Positions 16,432 to 38,304 of a stretch of 53,359 bases of DNA are shown here, one piece after another. The stretch is from an uncultured Bdellovibrionales bacterium (lineage in GTDB: Bacteria > Patescibacteriota > Minisyncoccia > Moranbacterales > UBA1568). The notes beneath the pieces were generated by a model. The model was not told where the DNA came from. It did not search any database and was given only the letters and a program-made list of their open reading frames with translations. A program made the translations under genes and the position numbers. The stretch covers positions 1-53,359 of the forward strand of contig CAZQWS010000006.1 in NCBI GenBank assembly GCA_964597355.1. The letters are read 5' to 3'. Each line of letters begins with the position of its first letter. Positions within the stretch are counted from its first letter, which is position 1.

Positions 16432-16449
16432 AGCAAAAAGACTTACTCT

Positions 16450-18669: not shown

Positions 18670-19956
18670 ATGGAGAATACTACGAAACAAACCGTGGCAG
18701 TGATCGGGCTTGGCTATGTCGGACTGCCTTTGGCGTTACGCGCTAGTGAACGCGGCTACCGAGTTATTGGTTTTGATACGAGTGAAAAGAAAATCGCCCT
18801 TCTCAAAGAAAAGAAGTCACCTATTGCTGATGAAAAACTTATTGAGCAAGTCAAACAATTTGAATTCACCCCAACCACCGATCCGAGCGCTCTCAAGGAA
18901 GCTGACATCATCCTCATTTGTGTCCCTACCCCAGTAGACGAAACCTATTACCCTGATCTTACGCCCGTACGCAACGCTGCCACTCTCTCGGCCAAGAATT
19001 TGAAGAAAGGTGCCCTCGTTGTCCTGGAATCGACTGTCAATCCTGGAGTCTCGGAAGAAGTAATCCAACCCATTCTCGAAGCCGAAGGTCACACTCTCGG
19101 AACCGATGTCTATCTCGCCCATTGTCCAGAACGTATCAACCCCGGTGACCCTAAATGGAATGTCTCGAATATTCCCCGCGTGGTAGGCGCAGCGGACGCC
19201 ACCGGCCTCGAACGTGCACTCAATTTCTATCGTTCGATCGTCGATGGCGAAATCCGTCCGATGAAATCCATCCGCGAAGCTGAAGCCGTCAAAATTGTCG
19301 AGAACTCTTTCCGTGATATCAACATCGCTTTCGTCAATGAACTGGCGAGGTCATTTGATGTGCTCGGCATCGATACCAAAGACGTCATTGAAGGCGCGGC
19401 TACCAAGCCTTTCGCTTTCATGCCGCATTTCCCTTCTTGCGGCGTCGGTGGACACTGTATCCCAGTGGATCCGTATTACCTCATCGAACGGGCCAAACAA
19501 TCTGGTTTTGATCACCGGTTCCTCAAGATCGCCCGCGAAATCAACAACAGCATGCCGCTCTATACGGTCGAGCTCCTTCAGGATGCTTTGAATGAAAAGA
19601 AGAAAGCCTTGAATGGCACCGTGGTTGGCGTCCTCGGTCTCGCCTACAAAGCCAATATCGATGACTTGCGTGAATCCCCCGCCCTGCGTATCGTCAAAGC
19701 TCTCAAGGATCACAAGGCCGACGTAATCACCTATGATCCGCATGTGAGTAGCCGTTCAACCGAAGCAAGTCTCGAAGCTTTGCTCGAAAAAGCTGACGCG
19801 ATTATCCTCGCTACTGACCACCGTGTCTTCAAGGAAACACTCACTCCCGAGCTCTTGAAACAGTATGAGATAGATGTCCTCGTGGATGGGAAAAACGCAC
19901 TCGATAAAACCCTCTTCCAAAACGCTGGTATTCTCTACAAAGGTATCGGCCGTTAG
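18670..19956 (+). CDS. Nucleotide-sugar dehydrogenase, UDP-HexNAc 6-dehydrogenase (WecC/WbpA-like)
   Basis: GLGYVG, ICVPTP, ESTVNPG, CPERINPG, KIVENSFR, GVGGHCIPVDP, DLRESPA. Start moved to ATG 18670. Confidence 0.93.
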   Translation: MENTTKQTVAVIGLGYVGLPLALRASERGYRVIGFDTSEKKIALLKEKKSPIADEKLIEQVKQFEFTPTTDPSALKEADIILICVPTPVDETYYPDLTPVRNAATLSAKNLKKGALVVLESTVNPGVSEEVIQPILEAEGHTLGTDVYLAHCPERINPGDPKWNVSNIPRVVGAADATGLERALNFYRSIVDGEIRPMKSIREAEAVKIVENSFRDINIAFVNELARSFDVLGIDTKDVIEGAATKPFAFMPHFPSCGVGGHCIPVDPYYLIERAKQSGFDHRFLKIAREINNSMPLYTVELLQDALNEKKKALNGTVVGVLGLAYKANIDDLRESPALRIVKALKDHKADVITYDPHVSSRSTEASLEALLEKADAIILATDHRVFKETLTPELLKQYEIDVLVDGKNALDKTLFQNAGILYKGIGR

Positions 19957-20056: not shown

Positions 20057-20347
20057 ATGATCTTTGGCCTCATAAAATTAGTAGTATGGTTCCTTGGGGT
20101 GGCGACACTCGCCTATATTGCTTTGCCCTATTTTGGTTATGAAGTAAACTGGAACTATTGGAATGAAAGTAAGGCTACCTGTGAAGAACGCTTGCGATCC
20201 TGCCAGCGAGATCTCATCAAATCTGGTCTCGAGGGTGCCAAAGAAAAATGTGATTTCAAATGTGTAGATACGAAATCGCTTATCCAAAAGAAAGCTAAGA
20301 GTCCCGTCAATGCTTTATCCTCCCCAACTGATGATAGTAGTCAATAA
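20057..20347 (+). CDS. Small membrane-anchored protein with four Cys
   Basis: Hydrophobic N-terminus, then C-x6-C and C-x3-C; in line with the glycan operon. Confidence 0.7.
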   Translation: MIFGLIKLVVWFLGVATLAYIALPYFGYEVNWNYWNESKATCEERLRSCQRDLIKSGLEGAKEKCDFKCVDTKSLIQKKAKSPVNALSSPTDDSSQ

Positions 20348-20377: not shown

Positions 20378-21331
20378 ATGCGTCTCATCATCAATATCCC
20401 CGCATATAACGAAGAAGCTGTGATCGGCAACACGATCAAAAACATGCCCCGCTCATACCGTGGCATCGATGAAGTCATGATCCAAGTCGTCGATGATGGT
20501 TCGAGCGACCGCACCAGTGAGGTAGCGAGAGAAGCTGGGGCCAACTTCGTTTTGCGCCATGATATCAACCGCAGGCTCGGAGTGATGTTTGCCACCGCCA
20601 GTGAAAATGCCCTCAAAGAAGGCGCGGACATCATGGTCAATATTGATGCCGACGGCCAATTTGACTCGGCGGAAATCCAAAAACTGATCGATCCTGTCCT
20701 CAATAATGAAGCCGACATGGTCGTCGGTGACCGCTTCTCGGAGTCGAGTGCCAAAAATATTCCTTGGATCAAGGATTTCTTCAACCGCCTTGGCGCTTCC
20801 ATGGTCGGTTCATTCCTCAATGTCAAAACGCATGATATTACCTGTGGTTTCCGCGCTCACAACCGAGAAACCCTCCTTCGTCTCAATAACCCCACTGGTT
20901 TTACCTATACCCAGGAGACAATCATCGATGCCATTGGGAAAAATCTCCGCGTCGTATGGGTTCCGGTCACCGTCACCTATTTCGCCGATCGCCAGTCGCG
21001 CATTGTCAAAAGTGCCTGGAGCTTCATCAACAATAGCGCCCGCATCATTTTGAAAGCTGTCCGGGATGTCCGCCCGATGAAATTCTTTGGCATTCCGGGA
21101 CTGATTCTGCTTACGGTTTCCTTTATTTCTTTCCTTGCCTTTTTGGTCCAATACTTGTCCCACGACTTCAAAGTCACTCCCTATATCAACTATCTTCTCT
21201 TTACAAGCGTGACTGCCCTCATCGGCATCCAACTTCTCATTTTCGCGTTTATCGCGGACATGATCAAAAGCAACCGCAAACTCGCCGAAGATGTCCTCTA
21301 TCGGATGAAAAAAGAAAAATACCAGAAATAA
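20378..21331 (+). CDS. GT2 polyprenol-phosphate glycosyltransferase-like (DPM/GtrB/ArnC type) with two C-terminal TMs
   Basis: IPAYNEE, VVDDGSSD, NIDADGQ, VVGDR, DITCGFRA, C-terminal RPMKFF plus TM pair. Confidence 0.9.
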   Translation: MRLIINIPAYNEEAVIGNTIKNMPRSYRGIDEVMIQVVDDGSSDRTSEVAREAGANFVLRHDINRRLGVMFATASENALKEGADIMVNIDADGQFDSAEIQKLIDPVLNNEADMVVGDRFSESSAKNIPWIKDFFNRLGASMVGSFLNVKTHDITCGFRAHNRETLLRLNNPTGFTYTQETIIDAIGKNLRVVWVPVTVTYFADRQSRIVKSAWSFINNSARIILKAVRDVRPMKFFGIPGLILLTVSFISFLAFLVQYLSHDFKVTPYINYLLFTSVTALIGIQLLIFAFIADMIKSNRKLAEDVLYRMKKEKYQK

Positions 21332-21335
21332 TGGT

Positions 21336-22463
21336 ATGCGTATTCTCTTTGTTTCACGGGCTTTTCCGCCCACTATTGGTGGTATCGAAAAGCAAAATGC
21401 TGAAGTGGCTGAGTTTTTGGGGAGAAAGGCACCACTCACCCTGATTGCCAATACGCGAGGGAAAAGTTTTCTCCCTGTTTTTTTACCTTTGGCCATGTTG
21501 CAAATCCTCTGGAAAGCGAGAAAACATGATTGTCTCCTCCTCGGTGATGGGGTCATCGCTCCACTGGGAGCCGTAGCGAAATTTATCTTTCCAAAGTTAA
21601 CTGTAGTCTCGATTATTCATGGACTAGATCTCACCTTTGGCAAACAAACTGGCTTATTTGCTCGAATATACCAATGGGTCAACATCCCCTCTCTCAAAAA
21701 ACTGGATGGGCTTATTTGTGTTAGCCAAAATACCAAAGCGATCGCTGAATCCGTCGGTGTAAAGCCCGAAAAAATCTCGGTCATCCCAAACGGTGTCGAT
21801 CCGAGCTTCTTCAATGAAACCCATACCCGAACTGAACTCGAAAAGCTTCTCAAGCGAGATTTGAGCCAAGAGAAAGTTATTCTCCGTCTTGGACGCTTTG
21901 TGAGGCATAAGGGAGCTGAATGGTTTATCAGAAATGTCATGCCCAAACTTCCTGAGCATGTTATTCTCGTCGCGGCTGGTGGCGTCGCCAAGGGAGCTCA
22001 TCCCGGTGATAGTAATATCTTTCCTCTTTGCGAAACAGCCGTCCGTGAACTTGGGCTAGAGAAAAGAGTCATTCTCCTTCCCAATGTTCCTTGGTCTACC
22101 GTCAAGCTCCTCCTCTCGACCGCTGATGTGGCGGTAGCTCCCAATATTCCAGTCGTGGGGAGCGCCGAGGGCTTTGGCATCGCCGTGATTGAAGCTTCAC
22201 TAAACCGTTTACCCATCGTGACCTCGCGCCTCGAGGGGCTCCAAGAAGCTCTCGTCGATGGAGAAAACGGACTTTTCGCTGAACCAGAAAATGCCGATGA
22301 TTTCGTCGCAAAAATTAACTGGCTCTTGGCTGATGATACTCGCCGGAAAGAGTTTGGCGAGAAAGCCCGGGCATATACCCTCGAGCACTACAGTTTGGAC
22401 ACTCTTTCCGATCGATACCTTGAAGTATTAAAAAATATCTCTACAAAGGGCCGACCTTTGTAA
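21336..22463 (+). CDS. GT4 glycosyltransferase
   Basis: FPPTIGGIE, IIHGLD, IPNGVD, GRFVRHKG, AEGFGIAVIEA. Confidence 0.93.
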   Translation: MRILFVSRAFPPTIGGIEKQNAEVAEFLGRKAPLTLIANTRGKSFLPVFLPLAMLQILWKARKHDCLLLGDGVIAPLGAVAKFIFPKLTVVSIIHGLDLTFGKQTGLFARIYQWVNIPSLKKLDGLICVSQNTKAIAESVGVKPEKISVIPNGVDPSFFNETHTRTELEKLLKRDLSQEKVILRLGRFVRHKGAEWFIRNVMPKLPEHVILVAAGGVAKGAHPGDSNIFPLCETAVRELGLEKRVILLPNVPWSTVKLLLSTADVAVAPNIPVVGSAEGFGIAVIEASLNRLPIVTSRLEGLQEALVDGENGLFAEPENADDFVAKINWLLADDTRRKEFGEKARAYTLEHYSLDTLSDRYLEVLKNISTKGRPL

Positions 22464-22467: not shown

Positions 22468-24417
22468 ATGGTTGAAACATTTCTTCTTTTTACCACTCTC
22501 GCACTGACTTTTTTCCTCCCCGGCTGGCTTTTCTTACACGTATTCTGGAAAAACAAATTCTCTTTCCTTGAAGAGAGTCTTTATTCTTTCGCCCTTGGTC
22601 TCACGCTTGTAAACGCACTAGCACTTATTCTTGATCGGCTCAACGTACCACTTTCTTTTACTGTCCTCGCTTCCTCTTTGGTACTGATACATATAGCGCT
22701 TGGTGGTATTCTCTGGTACCGAAATCGAATATCAACAATCAACAATCAACAATCAAATATTCTTGGAAATTGGAAATTGGAAATTGGAAATTCACGAATG
22801 TGGAGCCTTCTCCTCCTCATGCTCGTGATTACTATCGGCATCAAAGCCTACTACCTCGTGCCAGCTGGACTCCCTACTGCGACTGACATGGGCCATCATA
22901 TGTATTGGGCCAAGTATATTGCCGATAAACAAGAGCTCCCTGTTTACCAAAAAATCGAAGTAACGACTGATACCACCACTGGCGCCACGACGGTTACCCC
23001 TCCAGGCCATATCGCTGACTTTATCATTGGCGAGCATATCCCCTTTGGAGTTATTTCCATTCTCTCGGGACTTTCCCTCATTAGTTCTTTCCCCGTACTC
23101 GTCCTTTTGCTTATCAATCTCCTGTCGCTCCTTGGCATGCTCGCCCTCACCCTCCGTCTCGGACAAAGCCTTTGGAGTGAACAAGAACGCTCTCTCTTTG
23201 TACTCGGCACCTTTCTTTTTCTTGGACCACTCTTTGCCCTCGCTTCTCCACAGGCCAAATTTGTTTCGGGTGGTGTCGTGGGCAATCTCCTCGGGAATTT
23301 TTTCATCCCGCTTATTCTTCTCGCTTTCTATCTTGGTCTCCGTGAAAAACGCGGGGGCTTCATCGCGCTCGGCACCCTCCTCATGGGCACCCTCGCCTAC
23401 ACGCATCACCTCTCTACGCTCGTTCTTGGTTTTATCCTCATTGGTATTGCTCTCATGGCCTTACTCACAGTATGGAGAGATTTTCTTCCTACTGTGAAAA
23501 CATGGTTACTCACTTGCTTCAAGCCTTCCGTAGGCATCGTCGTTCTCGGCATAGCGCTCTTTCTTCTTTTTATCGCCGTCCCGAGCTATTTGGACCGTGA
23601 AGCCATCGATTCAGCTATCGGGAGCCCGGTCAAAACCACGCGCACTGGCCTTTCGTATTTCCAAGTCACCAATTCTCTCGGTATTGGGAAAAGCGCTCTC
23701 GCCATTGCTGGGTTGGTCCTTCTCGTTATCACCTGGAAGCGGTTTGAAAAACAGGATCCACTCGCTTGGGGACTCCTCTTTGGTTGGGCCGTGATGCTCT
23801 CACTCATGGCGATGAAGCCGCACTGGCTTTTCCTTGATATTCCGTCCAACCGGGTGGGCAGTTACCTCATTTATCCTGCTGGCCTTCTCGCTGGCTATGC
23901 CTTTATGGTCATGGCCAATGCCTTGGCCACGGCCAAAAAGAAAACCCTGGCCACTCTCCTCGGCAGTCTTCTCCTCGGTGTTATTGTCGCCAATGGTGTC
24001 TTTGAAAATGGAGCTGCTCTCAGCACGGTGAACAAAGCTCGCGAAGCTCAGGAAGTTTTCACCGCTTCGAAGTATCTCAGTGAAAAAACGAGCGAAACAG
24101 AAATGATCCTCAAGGACCACAATTATCTCGCCGCCGATGCCTGGATGAAGCTCTTCTTCGTCCGCGATTATGGTTATCCTCTCTCACGTGGTCTCTTCTC
24201 TCGCTACGAAGAAACCGGCAGCCGCCGCGAGCGTTGCACCCTCGTCATGATAGCGAGTCCCAATAGCACCGAAGCCAAGGAGTGTTTCGACGGTACTGGT
24301 ACCAACTACATCGTCGTCAATCCTACCTTTGACGCCGTCCAATTTGAAAAGTCAGGCGGCTTCGCCAAAGTCTACGCCAGCGACCACGTGGTGGTGTTCA
24401 AGCGCTTGCAAGAATAA
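22468..24417 (+). CDS. Polytopic membrane protein, probable GT-C-fold glycosyltransferase
   Basis: Many TMs, luminal-loop motif PTATDMGHHMYW, YTHHLS, soluble C-terminal domain. Family inferred from topology and context. Confidence 0.65.
   Translation: MVETFLLFTTLALTFFLPGWLFLHVFWKNKFSFLEESLYSFALGLTLVNALALILDRLNVPLSFTVLASSLVLIHIALGGILWYRNRISTINNQQSNILGNWKLEIGNSRMWSLLLLMLVITIGIKAYYLVPAGLPTATDMGHHMYWAKYIADKQELPVYQKIEVTTDTTTGATTVTPPGHIADFIIGEHIPFGVISILSGLSLISSFPVLVLLLINLLSLLGMLALTLRLGQSLWSEQERSLFVLGTFLFLGPLFALASPQAKFVSGGVVGNLLGNFFIPLILLAFYLGLREKRGGFIALGTLLMGTLAYTHHLSTLVLGFILIGIALMALLTVWRDFLPTVKTWLLTCFKPSVGIVVLGIALFLLFIAVPSYLDREAIDSAIGSPVKTTRTGLSYFQVTNSLGIGKSALAIAGLVLLVITWKRFEKQDPLAWGLLFGWAVMLSLMAMKPHWLFLDIPSNRVGSYLIYPAGLLAGYAFMVMANALATAKKKTLATLLGSLLLGVIVANGVFENGAALSTVNKAREAQEVFTASKYLSEKTSETEMILKDHNYLAADAWMKLFFVRDYGYPLSRGLFSRYEETGSRRERCTLVMIASPNSTEAKECFDGTGTNYIVVNPTFDAVQFEKSGGFAKVYASDHVVVFKRLQE
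22731..22790. repeat. In-frame heptamer arrays (ATCAACA)x3-4 and (TTGGAAA)x4 inside the CDS
   Basis: ATCAACA at 22731, 22738, 22745 (ATCAAAT 22752); TTGGAAA at 22763, 22770, 22777, 22784; encodes STINNQQSNILGNWKLEIGN. Confidence 0.85.
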
Positions 24418-24834: not shown

Positions 24835-25845
24835 TTATTCCACAACAGCCAATAAAGATTGGAAACTCTCTTTGATCCACTCTTCATCCAAGTTGCGGCC
24901 GATGAAGACGAGCTTGGTTTCTTTGGCTTCACCTTCTCGCCACTCCCGGTCCGGATGAACTGTATAGAGCGTATGCACGCCCTGGAGCACGCCGCGTTTC
25001 CCCTCGAATTCATCGGTATAGACGATACCCTTGTAGCGGAGGAGATCTGGCCCACTGCGTTCAATTACTTCACCCAGCCAAGCGTACAATGCGTCAATTT
25101 TTATAGGCTTGGATGAGCGCACCACTACAGAATTAATGTCGTGGAGATGATCTTCATGTTCATGTTCTTCTTCGAGAAAATCTTCAGGGACATGCCGGAA
25201 GCTATTTTTCCCAAACAACTCTCCGAGAGGGACATCTGATTGCACCGCTTCGAGAATTTTTGCTTCGTGATTGAGGCCGTGTATCTTTTTCTTTACCGTT
25301 TCTTTTTCTTCATTGGTCAAAAGATCGCATTTATTGAGGATAAGGATATCCGCGAGGGCGATTTGCTCGGCCGAGAGTGGTAGGTACCCAAGCTGCTTCC
25401 CAATATGTTTACCATCGACGACCGTGACGATCGCGTCGAGCTCATAGCAAGTGGCTACTACTTCGTCGAGGAGAAAGGTCTGAATGAGAGGCAAAGGATC
25501 AGCGAGACCTGTTGTTTCGATCACCACTCGGTCAAATTCTTTCTTTTCGCCTTCAATTCCAAGCTTCGCTTTGGCGAGCTTGGTCAAAGTATCAATAAGA
25601 TCTACCCGCACCGTGCAACAGAGACAGCCGTTATTGAGCTCGACCATCGATTCATCGCGCGCCACGATGAGATCCCCATCGATCCCCACCTGACCAAATT
25701 CATTCACAATCACCGCGATTTTTTCGCCGTGCTCTTCTTTCAAAATTCTATTAAGCAAAGTAGTTTTGCCCGCGCCAAGAAAGCCGGTAAGCAGAGTTAC
25801 TGGGATCTTTTTGAAGGGAATATCAGGAGTATTTTGGGCATTCAT
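24835..25845 (-). CDS. COG0523 (CobW/YjiA/YeiR-like) G3E P-loop GTPase, metallochaperone
   Basis: LTGFLGAGKTT, NEFG, GCLCCTV (CxCC), IETTGLADP, NKCD, His-rich EHEHEDHLH, CobW_C with RYKG. Confidence 0.95.
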   Translation of the reverse strand: MNAQNTPDIPFKKIPVTLLTGFLGAGKTTLLNRILKEEHGEKIAVIVNEFGQVGIDGDLIVARDESMVELNNGCLCCTVRVDLIDTLTKLAKAKLGIEGEKKEFDRVVIETTGLADPLPLIQTFLLDEVVATCYELDAIVTVVDGKHIGKQLGYLPLSAEQIALADILILNKCDLLTNEEKETVKKKIHGLNHEAKILEAVQSDVPLGELFGKNSFRHVPEDFLEEEHEHEDHLHDINSVVVRSSKPIKIDALYAWLGEVIERSGPDLLRYKGIVYTDEFEGKRGVLQGVHTLYTVHPDREWREGEAKETKLVFIGRNLDEEWIKESFQSLLAVVE

Positions 25846-25929: not shown

Positions 25930-26292
25930 ATGCTTCAAATAAGCCAAAAAACCTTTCTCCTGGCAGGAGTGGCCTTGCTTTTTATCGTTTCGAGTGCCCT
26001 CTTTGCGTACCATAAGCGCGCCCTTGACCCAATGGTCACTGGCGACTGGTGGGCGATTCGTTTTGTCTCGCTTCAGGATGAAGAGGACCTTCGTTTTGAA
26101 GTAGAGAACCACAGTCCGATCACCGAAGGAACGTATCAAATCTTTGCCGATACCACTCTCCATGAAGAAAGTCGTTTTGAAGTTGCGACCAGTACTGTAA
26201 CTACGGTTACTCCAACCAAAGAGCTAGCCAATACCAAGCGTATTCGCATCCTGGTAAAGCTTGGAAACAAAGAACAATCACTCATTCGTTAA
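25930..26292 (+). CDS. Small membrane-anchored protein with a beta-rich (Ig-like?) extracellular domain
   Basis: Single N-terminal TM, then alternating beta-strand-like segments; first gene of the GT4-RtcB unit. Confidence 0.65.
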   Translation: MLQISQKTFLLAGVALLFIVSSALFAYHKRALDPMVTGDWWAIRFVSLQDEEDLRFEVENHSPITEGTYQIFADTTLHEESRFEVATSTVTTVTPTKELANTKRIRILVKLGNKEQSLIR

Positions 26293-26294: not shown

Positions 26295-27419
26295 ATGCCC
26301 AAAAAAGTCCTGCTTGCTACCCGTCCGCTTGTTCCTCCTTGGGATGAAGCCTCCAAAAATTTCGCTTACTTTCTCGGGCGTGAGGTACGAAATCATGAGC
26401 TTACTCTTCTCACTACTAAAGAAAAACTCATCGGCCTTCCCGAAACGGTTACCGAAGAACCGATTTTTGAAAGCAATCACCTTGATCTCTCAGCCAAACT
26501 AAACCTGTTTCGCTATCTTCGTAAAATGCGAAAGAATTTTGATATTACTCATTACCTTTTTACTCCTACCAAGCAAAATTCAACCCTTATCAAACTTCTG
26601 GCAAAACCAACCCACGGAAAAACACTCCAAACCATCGCTACCCTCCGAGAAGACCTCTACTCTCCAGAAGAACTCCGTTCCATGCTTTTTGCTGATCATC
26701 TGATCGTTTATACCGATCTCACTAAGGAGAAGCTCGAGAAACTTGGCTTTAATAATGTTTCGCGTATCTATCCAGGAATTGATCTCGAACTCTATCGGCC
26801 TACGGGAAAAAATCAGAACGTTCTCGATACCTACCACCTCAGTCCGGAAGACTGCTTCATTATCTATCCTGGCGAATATACTCGCCTAGGTGCGACCGAT
26901 ATACTCACAGAGGCCTTTATCGAATATTTTACTCAGCATCTTGAAAGCCGAGTAAAGTTTCTCTTTGCCTGTCGGATCAAAAACGAAGTCGACGCAAAAA
27001 AGCGTGAAGCACTCCGAAAAATAGTTACCGAAAAAGGTTTGGCAGACAAGATCCTCTTCGATGAAAACAATGCTACCTTTGACATGCCTGCCCTCTACAA
27101 CACCGCTGACCTCGTTCTCTTTCCGGTAGAAAACCTCCGGGGAAAATTTGATGTTCCCCTGGTGATTATCGAAGCCTATGCCTGTGGTAAGCCCGTTATC
27201 CTCAGCGATTTACCCCAGTTCCGAGAATTTACAAATAGTGATATTTGTGTTACTATCCCCAAAGACTCAAAGGAGAAATTACTTGAATCTGTGGCTTATT
27301 TAAGCCAAAATGAAGCTGAAAGAATGCGTCTAGGAGAAAAAGCTCGACGCTTTGTAAAAGATCATTTTGATCTCAAAAATACTGCCAAGCAGTATGAAGA
27401 GGTCTATTCTTCTCTCTAA
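26295..27419 (+). CDS. GT4 glycosyltransferase (atypical EX7E)
   Basis: GT-B layout, IYPGID, LVLFP, PLVIIEAYACGKPVILSD; the first Glu of EX7E appears replaced (GKFDVP). Confidence 0.85.
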   Translation: MPKKVLLATRPLVPPWDEASKNFAYFLGREVRNHELTLLTTKEKLIGLPETVTEEPIFESNHLDLSAKLNLFRYLRKMRKNFDITHYLFTPTKQNSTLIKLLAKPTHGKTLQTIATLREDLYSPEELRSMLFADHLIVYTDLTKEKLEKLGFNNVSRIYPGIDLELYRPTGKNQNVLDTYHLSPEDCFIIYPGEYTRLGATDILTEAFIEYFTQHLESRVKFLFACRIKNEVDAKKREALRKIVTEKGLADKILFDENNATFDMPALYNTADLVLFPVENLRGKFDVPLVIIEAYACGKPVILSDLPQFREFTNSDICVTIPKDSKEKLLESVAYLSQNEAERMRLGEKARRFVKDHFDLKNTAKQYEEVYSSL

Positions 27420-27494: not shown

Positions 27495-29000
27495 ATGTAC
27501 GAACAAGCCTTCAAAAAAATTTCAGAACACAAAAGTGAAATGCGGACGGAAAAGATGAAAGTGCCGGTCGTGTTTCATATTGGGGAAAAACTCATGCCCA
27601 ATGTCGATACTTTGGCCCAGCTCGAAAGTGTGGCCAGCAACGATTCGGTGTCACAACATATCGCTGCTATGGCTGATGTTCACAGTAAGCCTGGCCGAAA
27701 AAATGCTACCGGTACCACTGTTGTTTCCGAAAAGTTTATCCTGCCTCAGGTCAATGACTCTGACCCTGCTTGTGGAATGCGTTTGGTCCGTCTCAATCTC
27801 GACGAAAGCAATATCACTCCCGAAGAAATTGATCGCGTCTTCCAGGCAGCTACCAAAACTGTTCCGACCAAAAAATATGTAGGGACCGTATTGCCCTTCC
27901 ATGTTATCGTCGATATTTGTCGTCTCGGAATCGAGCCCCTCATCAAGTACCTCGGTATCAAGACCAAGAACGAAGCTCAAAATAGTATTGACCGCGGGAA
28001 CTTCTTCCAAACGCCGCCCAGTCGTTTTGATATTCTTCGACTCCTTCCTCCCCTCTTCCTCTTTTTTGCTCAATTCCGCGCCGGTATTATTGGCGCTGCC
28101 GGCAATCACTTTCTCGACCTCATGAAGGTAACGGATGTCATCGATCCAGAAGTGGCTGCTAAGTTTAATCTCAAGAAGGGTCAGTATATCCTCATGGTGC
28201 ACTGTGGGTCAGGCATTCTCGGCCAATACACCATGTACATGTACACCGCCAAGAAACGTGAGCATCTTTCCACGGCCATTCTCATGAATATCGGCCGCTT
28301 CTTCTGGTTGACTCCTTTCCGAAAGACTATCAATGCTATCGCTCAGAAAATCCGTGAGTCAAACTTTGGAAAGAAAGAACCCCTGATCACGTTTGATGGC
28401 GAGGGCGAGGACGGGAAGCTTTACATGCAGGCTCGCTATGCCTGCTCTAACTTCGCACATGCTAACCGAGCCACTATTACTCATAACTTCGTCAAAACGG
28501 CTGAAAAGGTATTGGGGCGGACTATCGAAGCCGATCTCCTCTACGATATGCCGCATATCCTCGTGTCACAGGAGGAACATTATGGCAAAAACATGTGGGT
28601 ACACCGGAACGGCACCTCGAGAGCCTATGGCAAGGCGCGTATGGCTGATCATCCAGTCTTCAAAGACACCGGCGAACCAGCCTTTATCCCGACTTCTATG
28701 AGTACGGAAGCCTATCTTTGCGTCGGCCAAGATGGTAACGTCACGAGTTTTTACTCATGCAATCACGGTGCCGGAAAATCTGCCAAGAAAACTGAAAGTG
28801 TCGTCCCCGAAAGCAAAGCCGAGCTCCACGAAAAGCTCAAAGAGAAAGGCGTGAAACTCTACAACGGTCGCTCGTCCAAAGTGATCGAACAGGATTCTTC
28901 GCATTACAAACGCGCTGAAGACGTGATCGAAAGCGTCGTCGAAAACGAAGTCGTTAAACCCGTCGTCAAATTGCAGCCTATTTCAGTGATCATGTATTAG
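27495..29000 (+). CDS. Divergent RtcB-family protein
   Basis: MADVH, DPACG (DxxCG), GNHFLD, VHCGS, NFAHANR, YDMPH, VHRNG, IPTSMS, CNHGAG, EQ....YK, C-terminal KLQPISV all align with the RtcB motif order. Symbol withheld because several conserved residues differ. Confidence 0.88.
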   Translation: MYEQAFKKISEHKSEMRTEKMKVPVVFHIGEKLMPNVDTLAQLESVASNDSVSQHIAAMADVHSKPGRKNATGTTVVSEKFILPQVNDSDPACGMRLVRLNLDESNITPEEIDRVFQAATKTVPTKKYVGTVLPFHVIVDICRLGIEPLIKYLGIKTKNEAQNSIDRGNFFQTPPSRFDILRLLPPLFLFFAQFRAGIIGAAGNHFLDLMKVTDVIDPEVAAKFNLKKGQYILMVHCGSGILGQYTMYMYTAKKREHLSTAILMNIGRFFWLTPFRKTINAIAQKIRESNFGKKEPLITFDGEGEDGKLYMQARYACSNFAHANRATITHNFVKTAEKVLGRTIEADLLYDMPHILVSQEEHYGKNMWVHRNGTSRAYGKARMADHPVFKDTGEPAFIPTSMSTEAYLCVGQDGNVTSFYSCNHGAGKSAKKTESVVPESKAELHEKLKEKGVKLYNGRSSKVIEQDSSHYKRAEDVIESVVENEVVKPVVKLQPISVIMY

Positions 29001-29041: not shown

Positions 29042-29641
29042 ATGCAAATTATCACTCTCTCTGGTGTCGACGGGAGTGGGAAAAGCACCCAACTCACTCA
29101 CTTACAACAACTCCTCGAAGCAAAGGGAGGAAAGGTTGCCTATATTCATGCCGTAGCCTTTAGTCTCCCCCAAGCTGCTCGTGGCCTTTTTATACGCCCT
29201 CAAAAAGAAAAGACTCCGAGTAAAGCCAAAGCAAAAAGCGGTTTCGTTGGTGTTTTCCTTCGAAAAATAATCCTCCTCATTGATCTCATCCGTTTTCATT
29301 TCTTTGTAAAACAGCTCAAAAAAGCCGGCGTACACTACCTTCTCTCTGACCGGTATTTTTATGATACCCTCGTCAATATCGCCTATCTCGATGGTACCAA
29401 GCTCAATACTTCTTTTGCTCGCCTTGCCAATCGATTCATTCCCAAACCAAACAAAGCCTACTATCTCAGAGTTACCCCTGAGAAAGTTATGGAACGACCA
29501 AGAAAGCCAGAGCAAGGCCTTCAGTACCTCAAAGATAAAACCATTCTTTTCAATGAAGCTGCGCTTCTGTGGTCATTCATCACTCTCGATGCAGACCAGC
29601 CAATCGAGACAGTAGCCGAATCTTTGCATCAATCCTTATGA
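29042..29641 (+). CDS. Thymidylate-kinase-like P-loop kinase (DRYxYD subtype)
   Basis: SGVDGSGKSTQ P-loop, LLSDRYFYD, PKPNKAYYLRV; lacks the REPGG and AYQG motifs of housekeeping Tmk. Confidence 0.8.
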   Translation: MQIITLSGVDGSGKSTQLTHLQQLLEAKGGKVAYIHAVAFSLPQAARGLFIRPQKEKTPSKAKAKSGFVGVFLRKIILLIDLIRFHFFVKQLKKAGVHYLLSDRYFYDTLVNIAYLDGTKLNTSFARLANRFIPKPNKAYYLRVTPEKVMERPRKPEQGLQYLKDKTILFNEAALLWSFITLDADQPIETVAESLHQSL

Positions 29642-29692: not shown

Positions 29693-31219
29693 ATGTCATC
29701 CAAAGAACATCTCTCATCAACAGATTCAAAACCACATTCTTCAAAGCGTGGTGCGGGGTTTGCCCAAGCCGTCATCTGGCTCACCCTCGCTGAAATCATC
29801 TACAACTTGTCAGGGTATATCGTCCATGCGCTCACTGGCCGCTTTCTTGGGCCGGCTGAATATGGTCGCTACGGACTCGTTATCACCCTCACTACCATGG
29901 TGATTGTCCTCGTGGGAAACGGCATCCCTACGGCCATGTCCAAATATCTTTCTGCGGCTTCAGAAAAAGATCCAGGAACTATTTATGGCATTCGTCGGGC
30001 TGCCTTTCGGATTCAACTCATTCTCATGGGGAGCCTTACTTTTCTTTTTTTCCTCGCAGCGCCCCTCATCGCCTCACTCTTGCGTGATCCAAGTCTTACT
30101 CCGCTGTTCCAACTTTCGAGCCTCATCATTCCTACTTTTGCTGCTGCCTCTTTCAATCTCTATTTCTTTATTGGCCTCCATTTTTTCCGGGTTCAAGCCT
30201 TCCTCAAAACCCTCCGCTCATTGGGACGAATTATCTTTATCGGTGGTCTCGCTTTTATGAGTGGCACCTGGGGCGCAGTAACGGGTAATATCCTCGCGCC
30301 ACTCATTGTTTTCCTCGTCGGGCTCACTCTAGAGCCCTGGCTCATGCGACGCTACTTTCCTGAAGCTCATCAAGCCAAAACGACTGCCTCGAGCTTTCCT
30401 TGGCGTGACATCGTATCACAGGCGCTTCCCTTGACCCTCTTCCTCCTTTTCTACGAACTCATTCTCACGGTCGATCTTTTCTTGGTAAAAATTCTTCTCG
30501 CCGATGATCATCTAACCGGTATTTACAATGCCGCTATTACTGTCGGACGTATTCCTTATTATCTTTTTTACGCTCTCGCTATCGCCCTTCTTCCGACCAT
30601 TGCTAAGACTGAGGCTCATCGTGACACGGAAGCTACCAAGAAACTCCTGAGCCAATCTTTCCGTCTCATGCTTTTCTTACTCATTCCGCTTGTTGTACTC
30701 CTGGCTCGCTACGCCCCTGAGACCCTTCATCTCTTCTATGGCAATGCTTTCCTTGAAGCAGCTCTCCCTATGACTATTCTCACTATCGGTGTCGGCTGTC
30801 TCACGGTTTTTTATGTCTTTACTTTTGCTATGAATGGAGCAGGACTGCTTCGTTTCCCGCTTCAACTCTCAATTGCTGGCGTTATGCTCGGTCTCGCGCT
30901 CAACCTGACCCTTATCCCGCTGTATAGTCTCATTGGTGCAGCACTCGCCGTTACGATCGTTTCTTTCCTTCTCATGCTCGGTATCCTCATCAAAGTCTTC
31001 ACTCACTTCAAACTTTCATTCCCGTGGCGTACGGTTTTCTTTTCCTTCCTCGGAGTGCTTCTCCTATGGTTCGTCAGCCGGTTCCTGCCCGATGGCAGCT
31101 GGTTCATTCTCTCCAGTACTATTCTTGGAGTCATTTACCTCAGTTTCCTCTATCTCACCAAGGCCTTGACCCCAGAAGACCTCGCCCCTTTCAAGAAATT
31201 CGTTAAACGCTCAGCTTAG
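29693..31219 (+). CDS. Wzx-like oligosaccharide flippase (MOP superfamily)
   Basis: ~14 TM, RFLGPAEYG, GIYNAA, NLTLIPLYSLIGAALA. Confidence 0.9.
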   Translation: MSSKEHLSSTDSKPHSSKRGAGFAQAVIWLTLAEIIYNLSGYIVHALTGRFLGPAEYGRYGLVITLTTMVIVLVGNGIPTAMSKYLSAASEKDPGTIYGIRRAAFRIQLILMGSLTFLFFLAAPLIASLLRDPSLTPLFQLSSLIIPTFAAASFNLYFFIGLHFFRVQAFLKTLRSLGRIIFIGGLAFMSGTWGAVTGNILAPLIVFLVGLTLEPWLMRRYFPEAHQAKTTASSFPWRDIVSQALPLTLFLLFYELILTVDLFLVKILLADDHLTGIYNAAITVGRIPYYLFYALAIALLPTIAKTEAHRDTEATKKLLSQSFRLMLFLLIPLVVLLARYAPETLHLFYGNAFLEAALPMTILTIGVGCLTVFYVFTFAMNGAGLLRFPLQLSIAGVMLGLALNLTLIPLYSLIGAALAVTIVSFLLMLGILIKVFTHFKLSFPWRTVFFSFLGVLLLWFVSRFLPDGSWFILSSTILGVIYLSFLYLTKALTPEDLAPFKKFVKRSA

Positions 31220-31853: not shown

Positions 31854-34163
31854 TTATGGAAGGATTTCCAATCCCTTCTCGGCAGTGAAAGTGAGGTTTT
31901 TTTCGGTGACGCGGAGCTTACCATCGGCGTCAATACTCATTTCAAGCGCAACGGATTTTTTACTCGAATCCCCAGTTTGGAACTTTTCAAAAGCTGAGCC
32001 AAGGGAAGTATAGACGGGAACATTCTCAAGATTCTTTTGTTCATAGGGTATTACGAGTCCTGTCCCGATAACAAGGGACACTCCAGTCTTCACGATTTCT
32101 TGCAACAGTTCCTCTCGTTTGGGACTCATCACTTTCCCCTGCTTTTCATCCCAAGCGATAACCACAACCACTGGTTCGTTTTTCTCTTTCATCGGAACCA
32201 GAGTCTCACGCAACACATCAAGACCGATCCCGCCATTTTCGCGATAGTCTACCCAATGCATTTTTTCCGCACCTAACCATGTGGTTACACTCATCTCCCC
32301 TACTTCCCTGTCTGGAATTTCATTTTTAATCTTGCCAAGGGTTCGTATGTCGGTATAAGAAAGGTTGGCTGCTGTCTTTCGAAAAGGGATAGGATCCGCA
32401 AGTATTTGAGCTGCATTACTAAGATGTATAATATCCAAATTTGCTGCAGCAAACATATTACTAAATCGTAGTGGAAAAGAAAGTTCTGCTGATGCTCCAA
32501 TAGGTGGCAGCGGATCAGCTTCGTCACCTAAGGGGAGCCGTAAATCTCCAATAAATTCCAAGTATGAAGGACTGGCTTCAATAAGTCCTCTCACTAAACG
32601 TTCATCCCCTGAACGCACTGCCACCTCTCGCACTTTTGGATAATAACCAAGTGTACCGAGAAAAAGCACTCTTGCTTCAGGATTAGTATTGAGAAGTGTT
32701 ATTACTTCTCCCTGGGATCCAAACAGGGATTCTCCTTTGTTTCCAAGGAGACGATGTGCCCAACCGAAAAGAGAGAAGTGGCAGACAGGTGATCGTAGAG
32801 TCTCTTGCATCTTTTCTTCAAGAGACTTCAGTTGAGTTATTTTTTCATCTACTGAGATTTGATTGGATTCATAGCGAAGAGCAGACCTTTCCTCTGTAAG
32901 ACGAAGAATAAGTCTATCGATTTCTTGGATTGACTGTTTGAGATTATTTTCACCTCTGGTAGAGCCGGCTACATAACACATCCAGTTAGAACGTTGTTTG
33001 ACTATTGCATCCGTTCGACTGTTACCTGTTTGAAGAAATATATCTATAGTTTGAAAAACGGGATCAAGTCGATTCTGCTCCTCTTTGGCATATTGCTCTA
33101 ATTTCGTTTTACGAAACTCAATAGATTTCTGTAAACGATCAGTCAGCTCCGTTTGGTTCAGAGAGAGATTAGCCTCATGTTCATCCTCCATAGCCTGCTG
33201 CTCAGCCTTTTCTTTTTCAAAAGCCAATCGTTCCTCATCAGTCAAAATTTTACAAGCAGGAGATATCTCCCCTATCTTATTCTCTTTATAAATATTACTT
33301 TCTATCTTAAGTGAGTTCAGATAGTATAGAGAGGAATCCAGATTTCCTTGAGGAGCTTTACAATCTACCCCGTACCTGTTTTTGCTGAACGTATTATCTT
33401 TGATATGTACATCGCCAAACTTCTTGGCGCTATGGAAAAACTGTGCTGCAATACCACTCGCGACGTTACCAGAAAATGTATTACCACTAAAGACAAACTC
33501 CGCACTCCCCAAAATAATCTCTACTCCTGATTCTTGATTGTTCCGGAAGCTACTGTTCTTGATAAATCCCGTGACATTTTCCCGGATATCAACACCTTCT
33601 TCACGGCCATTGACCACCTCTATATTTTCAATCTCCGCCCTCGTTCCCGCCTGAAGATATAGCCCCTTCCCCGCATTTTCGATCATTGTATCCCGAACCA
33701 CTACCATCGTACTGCCTGGTTCGGTTTTGATAGCCACTTTGTTAATATCTTTGAAACGCAATTTCTCTAATTCGACACGAGAATTTTTGGTTATTAACAC
33801 ATCACCTGTTTTGGTAAATCCAAGTTTCTCAAGCTCGACACCATCAGAAAGAATCATGTCGCCAGTAATCGTAACTGCTTTAGCATCAGCCCCCACTATA
33901 GAGGTCCCTCTAGGAACTGTAACATCGGCCCCATAATTTCCAGGGAAAACATAAATCTTTTGTCCCTTGTCATCTCCAATGGCATCTACTGCAGCTTGGA
34001 TTGAACCAAAGGGATCATCTTCGGAGCCATCTCCGTCCTCACCAGCTTTGACATAATAATCATAACTCGCTGCCTGAATCGGCAAGACAATCAAAAAGTT
34101 GCCCGTTACCAACAGGAAAAGCAAAAACAGGTTCGAATAGGATGAGAAAAGGCGCTCAAACAT
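31854..34163 (-). CDS. Exported multidomain protein: right-handed beta-helix + coiled coil + degenerate CapA/metallophosphatase-like domain
   Basis: Signal peptide; YYV...G.D.G.G...PFGSIQAAVD start; parallel beta-helix repeats (NNQESGVEI, GNTFSGN); C-terminal VLFLG...VVIAW...LVIG...VYTSLG follows the CapA motif order. Confidence 0.7.
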   Translation of the reverse strand: MFERLFSSYSNLFLLFLLVTGNFLIVLPIQAASYDYYVKAGEDGDGSEDDPFGSIQAAVDAIGDDKGQKIYVFPGNYGADVTVPRGTSIVGADAKAVTITGDMILSDGVELEKLGFTKTGDVLITKNSRVELEKLRFKDINKVAIKTEPGSTMVVVRDTMIENAGKGLYLQAGTRAEIENIEVVNGREEGVDIRENVTGFIKNSSFRNNQESGVEIILGSAEFVFSGNTFSGNVASGIAAQFFHSAKKFGDVHIKDNTFSKNRYGVDCKAPQGNLDSSLYYLNSLKIESNIYKENKIGEISPACKILTDEERLAFEKEKAEQQAMEDEHEANLSLNQTELTDRLQKSIEFRKTKLEQYAKEEQNRLDPVFQTIDIFLQTGNSRTDAIVKQRSNWMCYVAGSTRGENNLKQSIQEIDRLILRLTEERSALRYESNQISVDEKITQLKSLEEKMQETLRSPVCHFSLFGWAHRLLGNKGESLFGSQGEVITLLNTNPEARVLFLGTLGYYPKVREVAVRSGDERLVRGLIEASPSYLEFIGDLRLPLGDEADPLPPIGASAELSFPLRFSNMFAAANLDIIHLSNAAQILADPIPFRKTAANLSYTDIRTLGKIKNEIPDREVGEMSVTTWLGAEKMHWVDYRENGGIGLDVLRETLVPMKEKNEPVVVVIAWDEKQGKVMSPKREELLQEIVKTGVSLVIGTGLVIPYEQKNLENVPVYTSLGSAFEKFQTGDSSKKSVALEMSIDADGKLRVTEKNLTFTAEKGLEILP

Positions 34164-34166
34164 GAA

Positions 34167-35942
34167 TTATTCTTTTATATCTTCCGTAGGATCATCATGC
34201 TCTTTGACAGATTCCTCCCGGGAGAAAAACTCTCGCAGAGTATAGCGTGGCGCCACTCGAGATCGAGGCTCTTTTGGTGGTTTGGAGAAATCCTGACGCT
34301 CGGCCGTGATCGCCTCTTCCTTTGGCAAAAGCTCGATAGCGGTAAGGGTGCCAAAAGAAGTTTTGGTTCCTACACTATAGTATGGAAGATATTTTTCTAA
34401 GGACTTCTCGTGAGGAGAACTCGTTCGAATAACAAGGAAATATACTCCTTCACGATAAATATTTGTTATACCGAGTGCGTCACTCTGTAGACCACGCTTA
34501 CTTATATGGTAATTGAGTGCTCGTTCATAGTGAGATTCACTCGCCATATAAATCGGCTGATTGGTTTCTCGGGAACGTTTTTCGAGAAAGTCCACAATGG
34601 CTTTTTGTTGCTCGAGAGTAACCCGCGTCGGCTCCTTGAGAATACGGTCAGGAGCGCTCATCACCGCTTCCGTCTTGGCACGCGATAATTCATCAAAACG
34701 AGCGAGGAGAAAATGAAGATTAGTGAAGATAAAAAGACCTAGCACTCCTACCATAAATCCCTTCCCGAGACGACCAGGCAAGAAAAGTTTTTGAAGGACA
34801 AGAATGAAACAACCCAACAAGAGGAAAAAGAGCGGGGCGTTTGGCAGAAAAAAACGAGGAGCGATGCCGTAAGAAAGCGGGAGGTAGAGTACAAAAGTGA
34901 CACCAAACCAAATAAGAGCCAAGAGAAGGAGGTCTTTCTTCCTTGTTTCTGTCTCTCGCCACCAGAGATACATGAGCGAAAGAAGAGCGAGGCCAAGGAG
35001 GATAACCGCTCCTACCCCATACCACTTTCCTTTGTCGCACTTCGCATCACAGATAGATCCAATCACTCCATTGGAAAGCACAATCGACGGGAAGGTAGCT
35101 CCTTCGAAACCCGTGAGAATCACAACGCTATGAAGCCCGAATTCACTTACATCTCGGACAGCTTTTTCGATAAGCGGGTGGTCTTCTTTTTCAGATTTTT
35201 CCGTCAAAGCCCCGATAAATTCACGAGCATTAGCACCTCCACTAGCCATTTCATTGAGCATCATCGGGAGATAAAGAAGAGCAACAATGGCGAGGGCTCC
35301 TCCCCAAAATTTGAGGGCTATCCTTGGCCGCTTTATCAAAAGGAATGCGACTGCAATCGTAGGGAGAGCCATGAAAGCCAGGAAATGCATATGTGTCGCC
35401 ATAGAGAGACCAAAGGCACTAAGAAAAAGCCAGCAGCCTTGATATTTTTCCTCGGCATCAACAGCTCGGAGCAGAGCATAGAAACCGAGCAGCGAGAAAA
35501 ACGGTACCAAATTGGGATTCCATGCAAAGCGGCCGTACATAACGAGAAAAGCCGATACGGAGAAAAGTGCCGTAAGGCCAAGTGAAAGAGGGACTGCAAA
35601 GAATCTGCGGGCCAGCAAATAAAAAAGCGGCAAAGTAAGGATAGAGAAGAAGGCTACCATAGCCGCTCCACCTACTACAGAATCACCCGTAAAAAGTCCG
35701 CCGAGATAGGTAAGCCAATAAAAGCCAGGACCCAAACGAAGGAAAGTTCCTCCTGCTCGGGGGCCGAGAAGCGGTAGGTCAGCTGCATCACCAGCGAGAG
35801 CCTGATCAATTACTTGGACATCTCGGGCTTGATCAAGCTCAAAGTGAAGCCAGTCGCCCAAGTTATATGTACGGAGGAATAGCCCCATCCCGATAATAAG
35901 CAAAAAAACTGCCCAAAATACTTGTTTTTTTGACCAATTCAT
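34167..35942 (-). CDS. GT-C glycosyltransferase (ArnT/PMT-like)
   Basis: HFELDQARD first-loop acidic motif, LLGP, GRFAWNPN, multi-TM core, RFFL, soluble C-terminal domain. Confidence 0.85.
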   Translation of the reverse strand: MNWSKKQVFWAVFLLIIGMGLFLRTYNLGDWLHFELDQARDVQVIDQALAGDAADLPLLGPRAGGTFLRLGPGFYWLTYLGGLFTGDSVVGGAAMVAFFSILTLPLFYLLARRFFAVPLSLGLTALFSVSAFLVMYGRFAWNPNLVPFFSLLGFYALLRAVDAEEKYQGCWLFLSAFGLSMATHMHFLAFMALPTIAVAFLLIKRPRIALKFWGGALAIVALLYLPMMLNEMASGGANAREFIGALTEKSEKEDHPLIEKAVRDVSEFGLHSVVILTGFEGATFPSIVLSNGVIGSICDAKCDKGKWYGVGAVILLGLALLSLMYLWWRETETRKKDLLLLALIWFGVTFVLYLPLSYGIAPRFFLPNAPLFFLLLGCFILVLQKLFLPGRLGKGFMVGVLGLFIFTNLHFLLARFDELSRAKTEAVMSAPDRILKEPTRVTLEQQKAIVDFLEKRSRETNQPIYMASESHYERALNYHISKRGLQSDALGITNIYREGVYFLVIRTSSPHEKSLEKYLPYYSVGTKTSFGTLTAIELLPKEEAITAERQDFSKPPKEPRSRVAPRYTLREFFSREESVKEHDDPTEDIKE

Positions 35943-36042
35943 GTGATTCCTTTTTGGAAGAAGTTACGCTATACTGAGCTCATTGAAGAAGCTTTTTTCT
36001 TCTTTAATTTTACGCTATTTTTCCTGATTGTCCACGATTTTT

Positions 36043-38292: not shown

Positions 38293-38304
38293 CTCATTAT
38301 CTGT

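Follow-up and report, generated by a model that had tools for sequence, protein, structure and literature searches.

A divergent RtcB-family protein conserved within an envelope-glycan synthesis module of Moranbacteria

The window analysed here is a 53,359-nucleotide stretch of DNA (contig CAZQWS010000006.1 of assembly GCA_964597355.1, positions 1 to 53,359) that was deposited under the name of an uncultured Bdellovibrionales bacterium and is placed by GTDB in the Patescibacteriota lineage Moranbacterales. Genes for envelope glycans dominate the window from approximately 11.6 to 51.5 kb, and among them, at positions 27495 to 29000, lies a gene for a non-canonical member of the RtcB family. To our knowledge, the only role described for RtcB is the joining of nucleic-acid ends, in tRNA splicing, the unfolded-protein response, and RNA and ribosome repair. 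The protein described here carries conserved substitutions around an intact catalytic core, is encoded within a conserved glycan-synthesis operon, and probably acts on a phosphorylated substrate other than nucleic acid.

The RtcB-like protein and its active site

The gene and the codons for its key residues are listed below. Residue numbers are those of the query protein, and residues of Pyrococcus horikoshii RtcB (PhoRtcB) carry the prefix Pho.

27495 to 29000, plus strand: RtcB-like open reading frame (ORF) with an ATG start, 501 amino acids, non-canonical RtcB-family protein
27675 to 27677, 27681 to 27683, 27687 to 27689, 27756 to 27758 and 27771 to 27773, plus strand: codons for D61, H63, K65, D88 and C93, respectively
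28104 to 28112, plus strand: codons for N204, H205 and F206
28116 to 28118, plus strand: codon for D208, equivalent to Pho E206
28200 to 28202, plus strand: codon for H236
28212 to 28214, plus strand: codon for G240, equivalent to Pho R238
28554 to 28559, plus strand: codons for H354 and I355
28605 to 28610, plus strand: codons for R371 and N372
28764 to 28766, plus strand: codon for H424, the nucleotidylated His by family equivalence
28992 to 28994, plus strand: codon for M500, equivalent to Pho K480

The ORF is genuine and its product has an RtcB fold. Residues 42 to 499 match positions 1 to 424 of the 426 in the Pfam RtcB model PF01139 (E = 1.5e-67; 229.1 bits against a cutoff of 27), and RtcB is the only Pfam domain of the protein. 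The AlphaFold2 (AF2) model, built with 44 homologues (pLDDT 90.9, pTM 0.91), is one compact RtcB fold, and in a Foldseek comparison with the Protein Data Bank the matches at E ≤ 0.001 were RtcB entries only, among them 4dwq chain A (TM-score 0.80/0.83, E = 2.6e-36). No membrane-binding or additional domain was detected by Pfam or in the AF2 model. The NCBIfam models for RtcB were all far under their cutoffs (PRK09588, 115.5 against 407; TIGR03073, 76.6 against 271.8), as were the intein-type RtcB models. The closest solved relative by HMMER was PhoRtcB (1uc2/4dwq; E = 1.7e-37), to which the query aligned in three pieces, residues 19 to 125, 197 to 247 and 296 to 498. The query is approximately 25% identical to canonical RtcB, and its segments 126 to 196 and 248 to 295 were unaligned to PhoRtcB, the former nonetheless containing clade-conserved residues. 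The PADLOC scan for defence systems returned no match for the RtcB-like protein and only marginal, P-loop-level matches for its neighbours.

The residues that matter for catalysis have been assigned roles in canonical RtcB. Metal 1 is bound by Pho C98, H234 and H329 and metal 2 by Pho D95, C98 and H203; Pho N202 hydrogen-bonds the bridging oxygen between the alpha- and beta-phosphates of GTP and Pho N330 its gamma-phosphate, while the guanine is contacted by Pho K480 at O6 and by Pho E206 at N1 and N2 (PMC9745838). The roles of the nucleotidylated Pho H404 and of Pho D65 have also been described (PMC3973293). On the nucleic-acid side, a pair of vicinal phosphates on the 5'-OH strand is clamped by Pho R238, and sealing by the R189A mutant of Escherichia coli RtcB is 200-fold slower (PMC8051266).

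The HMMER alignment and independent MAFFT alignments reproduced throughout the residue equivalences that a sequence-only reading of this DNA had drawn by eye, so that an error in that alignment does not account for the changed residues. Retained in the query are D61 (Pho D65), H63 (Pho H67), C93 (Pho C98), N204 (Pho N202), H205 (Pho H203), H236 (Pho H234), H354 (Pho H329) and H424 (Pho H404, in NHGAGK), together with F206 of the Asn-His-Phe motif. The claim that the Cys and His metal ligands and the guanylylated His are kept was thus borne out. The changed positions are Pho E206 to D208, R238 to G240, G239 to I241, N330 to I355, K351 to N372, G379 to T400, G382 to S403, S385 to A406, R408 to K428 and K480 to M500. 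The PDGHQGYGFPIGG loop of canonical RtcB is swapped for ADVHSKPGRKNATG, and in this form the D-x-H loop carries a 2-residue insertion that includes an invariant Lys. The alignments confirmed the motif changes that had been read from the letters, namely Glu206 to Asp, GSRG to GSGI, HN to HI, HRKG to HRNG, PGSMG to PTSMS, the C-terminal KG to MY and the altered loop. The query therefore lacks the Glu206/Lys480 guanine contacts, the Arg238 clamp, the Asn330 contact and the HRKG lysine expected of a canonical ligase. PhoRtcB has the canonical residue at every position covered by its alignment, and E. coli RtcB1 and the PrfH-linked RtcB2 likewise align with the canonical residues retained. As judged from these alignments, the catalytic engine is preserved, and different residues, equally conserved, now stand in place of the two guanine contacts, a contact to the triphosphate and the clamp on the polynucleotide.

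The same evidence bears on a competing explanation, in which the protein is a genuine nucleic-acid 3'-phosphate/5'-OH ligase for RNA repair or rRNA/tRNA joining with an altered pocket, and its position in a glycan operon is simply inherited gene order. We regard this as a possibility, although a distinctly less probable one. The full-length RtcB match, the fold and the conservation of every catalytic residue would all be expected of such a ligase. The altered guanine contacts also have an experimental parallel: PhoRtcB alone is inactivated by E206A and by K480A, whereas RtcB together with Archease survives the loss of either residue and can use ATP. The K480A protein with Archease and ATP even gives approximately twice the ligation product of the wild type; the first explanation considered was that a clash with the amino group of adenine had been removed, but the KM was found unchanged and the rate faster (PMC3973293). 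The loss of the R238 clamp on the 5'-OH strand, on the other hand, counts against a nucleic-acid ligase.

Clade, conservation and phylogeny

A word-indexed search returned hundreds of 501-residue homologues, 72 to 92% identical to the query, from Candidatus Moranbacteria/Moraniibacteriota and Minisyncoccota, which assigns the window itself to a Patescibacteria (CPR) genome. Searching 1.84 billion cluster representatives gave 1753 matches that graded from 53% identity to canonical RtcBs, and starting a search from a member of 36% identity uncovered another large group in the Parcubacteria group and Moranbacteria. The best 80 loci of a scan of genome contigs were all Moranbacteria-type; the wider distribution comes from a metagenome scan and look-ups of representatives. 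In their source annotations, homologues are called "tRNA-splicing ligase RtcB" or "RtcB family protein." Loci L005, L006, L009 and approximately 35 other Moranbacteria-type loci come from metagenome-assembled genomes (MAGs) titled "uncultured Bdellovibrionales bacterium," a label that gene content and 66 to 89% identity to Moranbacteria proteins suggest is wrong.

The neighbour-joining tree, built from 108 representatives, placed the clade of the query (clade A, from Moranbacteria and the Parcubacteria group) and a sister clade B in one monophyletic branch. Together they branch within a large non-canonical "DxHxK" group, apart from the canonical archaeal-type (P. horikoshii-like) RtcBs. The query clade thus does not nest among ordinary RtcBs, in agreement with the divergent RtcB described in the sequence-only reading; the name paralog given to it there is a provisional one.

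Conservation was counted over 236 clade A sequences that are 38 to 92% identical to the query. Residues D61, K65, D88, C93, R195, N204, H205, D208, H236, H354, R371, H424 and M500 are invariant, and H63 and F206 have one exception each. Near-invariant are G240 in place of Pho R238, N372 in place of Pho K351, and Ile, Val or Leu at position 355 in place of Pho N330. Because they are fixed across this range of identity, these replacements do not reflect chance drift.

The same counts led us to amend two residue assignments. The Asp of the DPACG motif had been equated with the metal ligand Pho D95, and the aligned position, three residues before the Cys, does hold an Asp in the query (D90). However, Asp is confined here to the subclade of at least 65% identity plus a single other member; the remaining clade A sequences have Ala or, rarely, Ser. 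Since D88, five residues before the Cys, is invariant, it is the likelier acidic metal ligand, which would represent a shift relative to canonical RtcB. Similarly, the change of HGAGR to HGAGK (Pho R408 to K428) is present in the query but is confined to its subclade, and Arg is retained in most of the clade.

Members of clade B occupy the same operon position and have diverged further in the pocket: Pho N202 is replaced by Ser, HGAG by HE(I/F/L)G, Pho E206 by Ser, Thr or Tyr, and Pho K480 by Thr. In the clade B protein of locus L086 (8001 to 9470) and in P0125, P0129, P0130, P0134 and P0137, PGSMG is also replaced by AP(F/L)xx and the C-terminus is (T/S)-(Y/H). From these residues, clade B may use yet another cofactor or substrate.

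Three further observations concern the family at large. In P0190 and P0245, Pho E206 is replaced by Asp and Lys480 is lost (to Thr or Leu), with otherwise canonical key residues; P0190 nests among canonical RtcBs in the tree, and P0175 has the Asp with the Lys retained. This pattern hints that positions 206 and 480 co-vary when nucleotide preference changes. The Moraniibacteriota MAG JBPOHW01 has two RtcB-like loci on separate contigs (L062 and L081, 72% and 74% identical to the query); either the locus is genuinely duplicated or the bin mixes strains. No second RtcB-like ORF was found in the flanks of 10 kb on either side of the 80 Moranbacteria loci, a span that says little about whole genomes.

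The glycan-synthesis module and its recurrence

The RtcB-like gene is flanked by the following genes.

18466 to 19956, plus strand: UDP-glucose/GDP-mannose dehydrogenase (UGDH), head of the module, found in 45 of 88 loci
20057 to 20347, plus strand: small transmembrane (TM) protein, 96 amino acids, with an N-terminal TM helix; relatives have a gene for 76 to 79 amino acids before GT2
20378 to 21331, plus strand: GT2, with C-terminal TM helices, of polyprenyl-phosphate type (AglJ/PpgS/ArnC-like), by Pfam
21336 to 22463, plus strand: GT4-family glycosyltransferase (GT4), by Pfam, NCBIfam and locus comparison
22468 to 24417, plus strand: polytopic membrane protein of 649 amino acids (DUF6541/DUF1616/DUF6077-like), found in 55 of 88 loci
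24835 to 25845, minus strand: CobW/COG0523 GTPase, between the 649-residue protein and the 120-residue protein, outside the conserved core
25930 to 26292, plus strand: conserved protein of 120 amino acids, between the large membrane protein and GT1
26295 to 27419, plus strand: GT1, a GT-B glycosyltransferase (GT4-family, Pfam Glycos_transf_1) with the N-terminal motif RPLVPPWDEASKN
29042 to 29641, plus strand: TmkL, a P-loop kinase of thymidylate-kinase fold, 199 amino acids, with a partial Pfam match
29693 to 31219, plus strand: Wzx/MOP-type polysaccharide flippase (Wzx), by Pfam Polysacc_synt, with weak NCBIfam matches to WzxE and an O-glycosylation flippase

The module accordingly runs in the order UGDH, small TM protein, GT2, GT4, 649-residue membrane protein, 120-residue protein, GT1, RtcB, TmkL and Wzx. 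UGDH, GT2, GT4, GT1 and Wzx all lie on the plus strand between 18466 and 31219, and this co-oriented block is conserved across loci. In tblastn searches of 88 loci, TmkL was found after RtcB in 80, Wzx in 76 and GT1 upstream in 75, the misses falling mostly at contig ends, and the module was found again in relatives with 75%, 53%, approximately 47% and 36% RtcB identity. In L085 and L086, GT1 overlaps RtcB by 14 nucleotides. In the two loci examined that have an insertion between RtcB and TmkL, a Wzy_C polymerase/ligase-type gene lies there, accompanied in one of them by an FGase-family gene. Across the window, 21 terminator-like sites were counted against 12.2 expected and 12 promoter-like sites against 12.4 expected from shuffled sequence. 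No plus-strand terminator-like site lies in the intergenic gaps between GT1, RtcB, TmkL and Wzx, which is consistent with, although not proof of, a single transcript.

Several of these genes call for comment. The Pfam domain of UGDH begins at residue 76, so the true start is probably the ATG near 18670 and the 75-residue N-terminal extension from the TTG start is probably untranslated; a second UDP-glucose/GDP-mannose dehydrogenase gene lies at 45312 to 46643 on the minus strand. The best NCBIfam matches of GT2 were AglJ (1e-35) and PpgS (3e-28), both under cutoff. The 120-residue protein had no match in Pfam, NCBIfam or PADLOC, and a protein of 108 to 129 residues occupies its position in L001, L003, L085, L086, L090 and the P0341 locus. 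The CobW gene was matched at the same spot in 8 of 88 loci, all near relatives, with a weak match near RtcB in one more. RtcB enzymes depend on Mn, and Zn and Cu poison them (PMC9745838); a metal-supply link between the RtcB-like protein and this member of a metallochaperone family is therefore conceivable.

TmkL is unlikely to be a housekeeping dTMP kinase. Its AF2 model (pLDDT 87) had top Foldseek matches that were all Tmk (TM-score 0.69 to 0.75), and alignment to Thermus thermophilus Tmk showed that the P-loop GVDGSGKS and the DRY motif are retained. However, the TMP-binding TREPGG motif is gone and the protein scored 37.9 against the NCBIfam dTMP-kinase cutoff of 83.25 (TIGR00041), both of which argue against a standard dTMP kinase. 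The TmkL family is small, comprising 325 proteins from the same taxa with invariant residues of their own.

We compared the conservation of the module genes. Median identity across 80 species was 75% for the RtcB-like protein, the highest of the module, followed by UGDH (68%), GT2 (62%), GT1 (60%), Wzx (52%), GT4 (44%), TmkL (43%) and the membrane protein (42%). The possibility that the gene is in decay or already a pseudogene was rejected, as the catalytic residues are invariant and the gene is the most conserved of the module. Such a ranking is also what the nucleic-acid ligase explanation would predict for an information-processing enzyme. Between clades A and B, however, RtcB is the least conserved gene, with 34% identity in L086 against 60% for GT2 and 47% for GT1, and 47 to 60% for GT2, UGDH, GT1 and Wzx as a group. 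This, together with the altered Pho N202 and HGxG positions of clade B, would be odd for a housekeeping ligase. The contrast between high conservation within clade A and low conservation between the clades points to a change of function rather than to the constancy of a housekeeping gene.

The partners expected of an RNA-processing RtcB were also sought. None of Archease, RtcA, RtcR and PrfH was found in the window or in the annotated related loci, and across at least 88 loci none of the four was ever adjacent to the gene. By contrast, canonical RtcBs recovered by the same metagenome scan (L107 and L114) adjoin Archease. The concern that the query might have the usual RtcB neighbours was therefore not substantiated, and a conserved glycan operon stands in their place, which weighs against a nucleic-acid ligase. 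Scans of the window for tRNAs and with Rfam gave no match, indicating that no gene for an RNA substrate lies nearby. The only gene of the RNA-end-processing type in the window, which counts in favour of an RNA ligase, is that of a LigT-type 2H phosphoesterase (2',3'-cyclic phosphodiesterase family) at 4679 to 5227 on the minus strand, 22 kb from RtcB. It overlaps a long TTG-started PriA ORF (4998 to 7205), the true start of which is probably further downstream.

If the operon position were inherited synteny alone, GT1 would not be expected to recur with distantly related RtcBs amid otherwise different neighbours, and its recurrence is the strongest argument against that interpretation. The distant set comprised three non-canonical RtcB lineages, P0127, P0143 and P0140, with approximately 29 to 35% identity and four sampled loci. 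P0127-type loci encode a GT4, GT1, a B12-radical-SAM protein, a SPASM radical-SAM protein and LPG_synthase_TM, and one of them also a TmkL homologue on the opposite strand. P0143-type loci encode GT1, a methyltransferase, a B12-radical-SAM protein, a polysaccharide deacetylase, a HAD-like phosphatase and GT2. LPG_synthase_TM overlaps RtcB by 11 nucleotides in P0143-type loci and abuts or overlaps it in P0127-type loci. The same GT1 subfamily lies within approximately 4 kb of RtcB in all three distant lineages, and in the P0140 locus it overlaps RtcB by 4 nucleotides. Counting the query's own, GT1 subfamily members thus occur in non-canonical RtcB loci of four lineages, and are adjacent or overlapping in two. 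The assignment to one subfamily is specific: the distant GT1s (L126, L127 and L088) are 26 to 29% identical to that of the window over 99% coverage (E = 1e-41 to 1e-50), and match the other GT4-family glycosyltransferases of the window only partially, at E ≥ 1e-6. A GT1 hidden Markov model matched with values of 6e-72 and 6e-63, and the N-terminal motif R-x-x-x-PPWDE-x-x-KN is common to these GT1s. The recurrence of this subfamily with distant non-canonical RtcBs, once overlapping, counts against the protein being a nucleic-acid ligase.

The surroundings of the module are also rich in glycan genes. WecG/TagA is encoded at 3962 to 4651 on the minus strand, and a minus-strand run at 11619 to 17610 encodes a GT2, a LytR-CpsA-Psr (LCP) ligase, a GT4, a Wzy_C protein (14851 to 16431) and a further GT4; these minus-strand genes are typical of Gram-positive secondary cell-wall polymers. 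No TagB/TagF-type glycerophosphotransferase was found among the window proteins scanned. Adjoining the module, at 31854 to 40209, are a 769-residue beta-helix protein and three consecutive PMT_2/PMT-type GT-C membrane glycosyltransferases, followed at 40371 to 41321 on the minus strand by an LPG_synthase_TM protein, the domain that adjoins non-canonical RtcB in the P0127- and P0143-type loci. In the P0124 locus (L087, RtcB 41% identical), a CofD-family gene at 298 to 1302 lies directly upstream of a clade A RtcB, on a contig of only 2.9 kb. Lactyl-diphospho-guanosine, on which CofD enzymes act, has exactly the X-O-P-P-G form that the first two steps of RtcB yield.

Proposed mechanism and significance

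The shared fold, metal ligands, Asn-His-Phe motif, Pho D65/H67 equivalents and HGxG His indicate that the three-step nucleotidyl-transfer chemistry is presumably the same as in canonical RtcB (P. horikoshii PH1602, E. coli and human RTCB), from which the query differs in its guanine-reading positions and in having glycan-synthesis genes instead of Archease/RtcA as operon partners. With rather better than even confidence, we favour the interpretation that, in the synthesis of envelope glycans, the protein applies this chemistry to a phosphomonoester that is not a nucleic acid, its choice of nucleotide being relaxed or changed. The sequence-only reading had proposed a metal-dependent nucleotidylating enzyme with an altered nucleotide and/or a non-RNA substrate; the fixed substitutions, the separate clade, the glycan operon and the GT1 association add weight to that proposal, which is thereby supported in part, its assignments at D90 and K428 being the parts that needed revision.

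We infer the substrate, nucleotide and product from family chemistry and gene context. In step 1, a two-metal site formed by C93, H205, H236, H354 and D88 would allow His424 to attack a nucleoside triphosphate (NTP), giving an enzyme-His-nucleoside monophosphate (NMP) intermediate and pyrophosphate. Given the changes of Glu to Asp208 and Lys to Met500, and of the gamma-phosphate contact Asn330 to Ile, the cofactor is probably no longer specifically GTP, and is likely ATP or another NTP. In step 2, the NMP would be passed to a phosphomonoester other than an RNA 3'-phosphate, such as the phosphate of a sugar, a polyol or a lipid-linked glycan, yielding X-O-P-P-N. Two outcomes can be envisaged for step 3. 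In the one we favour, a hydroxyl of the glycan made by GT1 would attack this product to form a phosphodiester with release of NMP, so that one active site would do the work of cytidylyltransferase and phosphotransferase pairs such as LicC/LicD and TagD/TagF. In the other, the nucleoside diphosphate (NDP)-activated compound would be freed as a donor for the partner GT1. TmkL could supply the substrate in phosphorylated form or recycle NMP once it is released, and the finished lipid-linked unit would be exported by the adjacent Wzx flippase.

There are functional analogies and precedents for such a scheme. In the TagD/TagF, TarI/TarL and LicA/LicC/LicD systems, an alcohol phosphate is converted to NDP-X and transferred to a glycan hydroxyl, with NMP leaving and a phosphodiester formed; a kinase supplies the phosphomonoester, and the setting is that of Wzx/LCP-type wall polymers, as in the window with its TagA/WecG and LCP genes. 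These enzymes have unrelated folds and form no covalent His-NMP, so that the analogy is one of function and homology to them is not claimed. Within the RtcB family, the Myxococcus xanthus paralogs studied by Maughan and Shuman, such as RtcB3 with its 5'-phosphate capping activity, reportedly transfer NMP onto phosphomonoesters beyond the RNA 3'-phosphate and can stop at a pyrophosphate-linked product, their substrates still being nucleic-acid ends. The E. coli RtcB2-PrfH ribosome repair system resembles our case in that a conserved partner gene in the operon gave the first hint of what a bacterial RtcB member does (PMC9304027, PMC13166195). RtcB2, however, is canonical (PDLHPGRG, GNHFAE, HSGSRG, HN, HRKG, HGAGR and a C-terminal LKN), has approximately 380 amino acids and is paired with a release-factor homologue, none of which applies to the query.

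A different nucleotidylation target (a protein, polyprenyl phosphate or phosphatidyl phosphate), or a non-catalytic role as a scaffold or regulator of the glycan machinery, must also be considered, but we judge either to be improbable. Being phosphomonoesters, polyprenyl phosphate and phosphatidic acid could in theory be activated by RtcB chemistry, the module holds several membrane proteins and a polyprenyl-phosphate-type GT2, and LPG_synthase_TM abuts or overlaps RtcB in the P0127- and P0143-type loci. Conversely, the single-domain architecture offers no membrane-binding element, nothing points specifically at a protein, and the invariance of every catalytic residue makes a scaffold unlikely.

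Several points weigh against the favoured assignment to glycan synthesis. No initiating phosphoglycosyl transferase was recognised inside the module, and the sequence names no particular candidate phosphomonoester. Most of the context evidence is from a single lineage, that of Moranbacteria and the Parcubacteria group, in which synteny is possibly inherited, and the recurrence outside it amounts to four loci. High conservation beside fast-evolving envelope genes is also expected of a housekeeping RNA enzyme. Glu to Asp is a conservative change, PhoRtcB with Archease tolerates both E206A and K480A, and the altered pocket is compatible with GTP or RNA; many others in the non-canonical group also lack R238. 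Finally, Patescibacteria are said, after work by Brown et al. in 2015, to have many rRNA insertions, which possibly need a ligase.

Taken more broadly, these observations raise the possibility, which we consider evenly balanced, that a large and previously undescribed RtcB branch has left nucleic-acid repair and, together with the PPWDE-type GT1 and, in Moranbacteria, a Tmk-fold kinase, activates a sugar-, polyol- or lipid-linked phosphate through a His-NMP intermediate to forge a glycopolymer phosphodiester or an NDP-donor. The fold and chemistry are already known; the partners are apparently new and the substrate class probably so. No published link between RtcB and glycan clusters was found in the literature searched, the coverage of which was incomplete, and the RtcB reviews among it mention no non-RNA branch. 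If the proposal is correct, this would be the first non-nucleic-acid substrate of an RtcB enzyme, and His-NMP and phosphate-activation chemistry would extend to carbohydrates or lipids. Hundreds of database entries named "tRNA-splicing ligase RtcB" would then probably be misannotated. For the Patescibacteria, it would represent a new route to phosphodiester-linked envelope polymers, and would provide a handle on how these genome-reduced bacteria build the envelope that is central to their epibiotic lifestyle.

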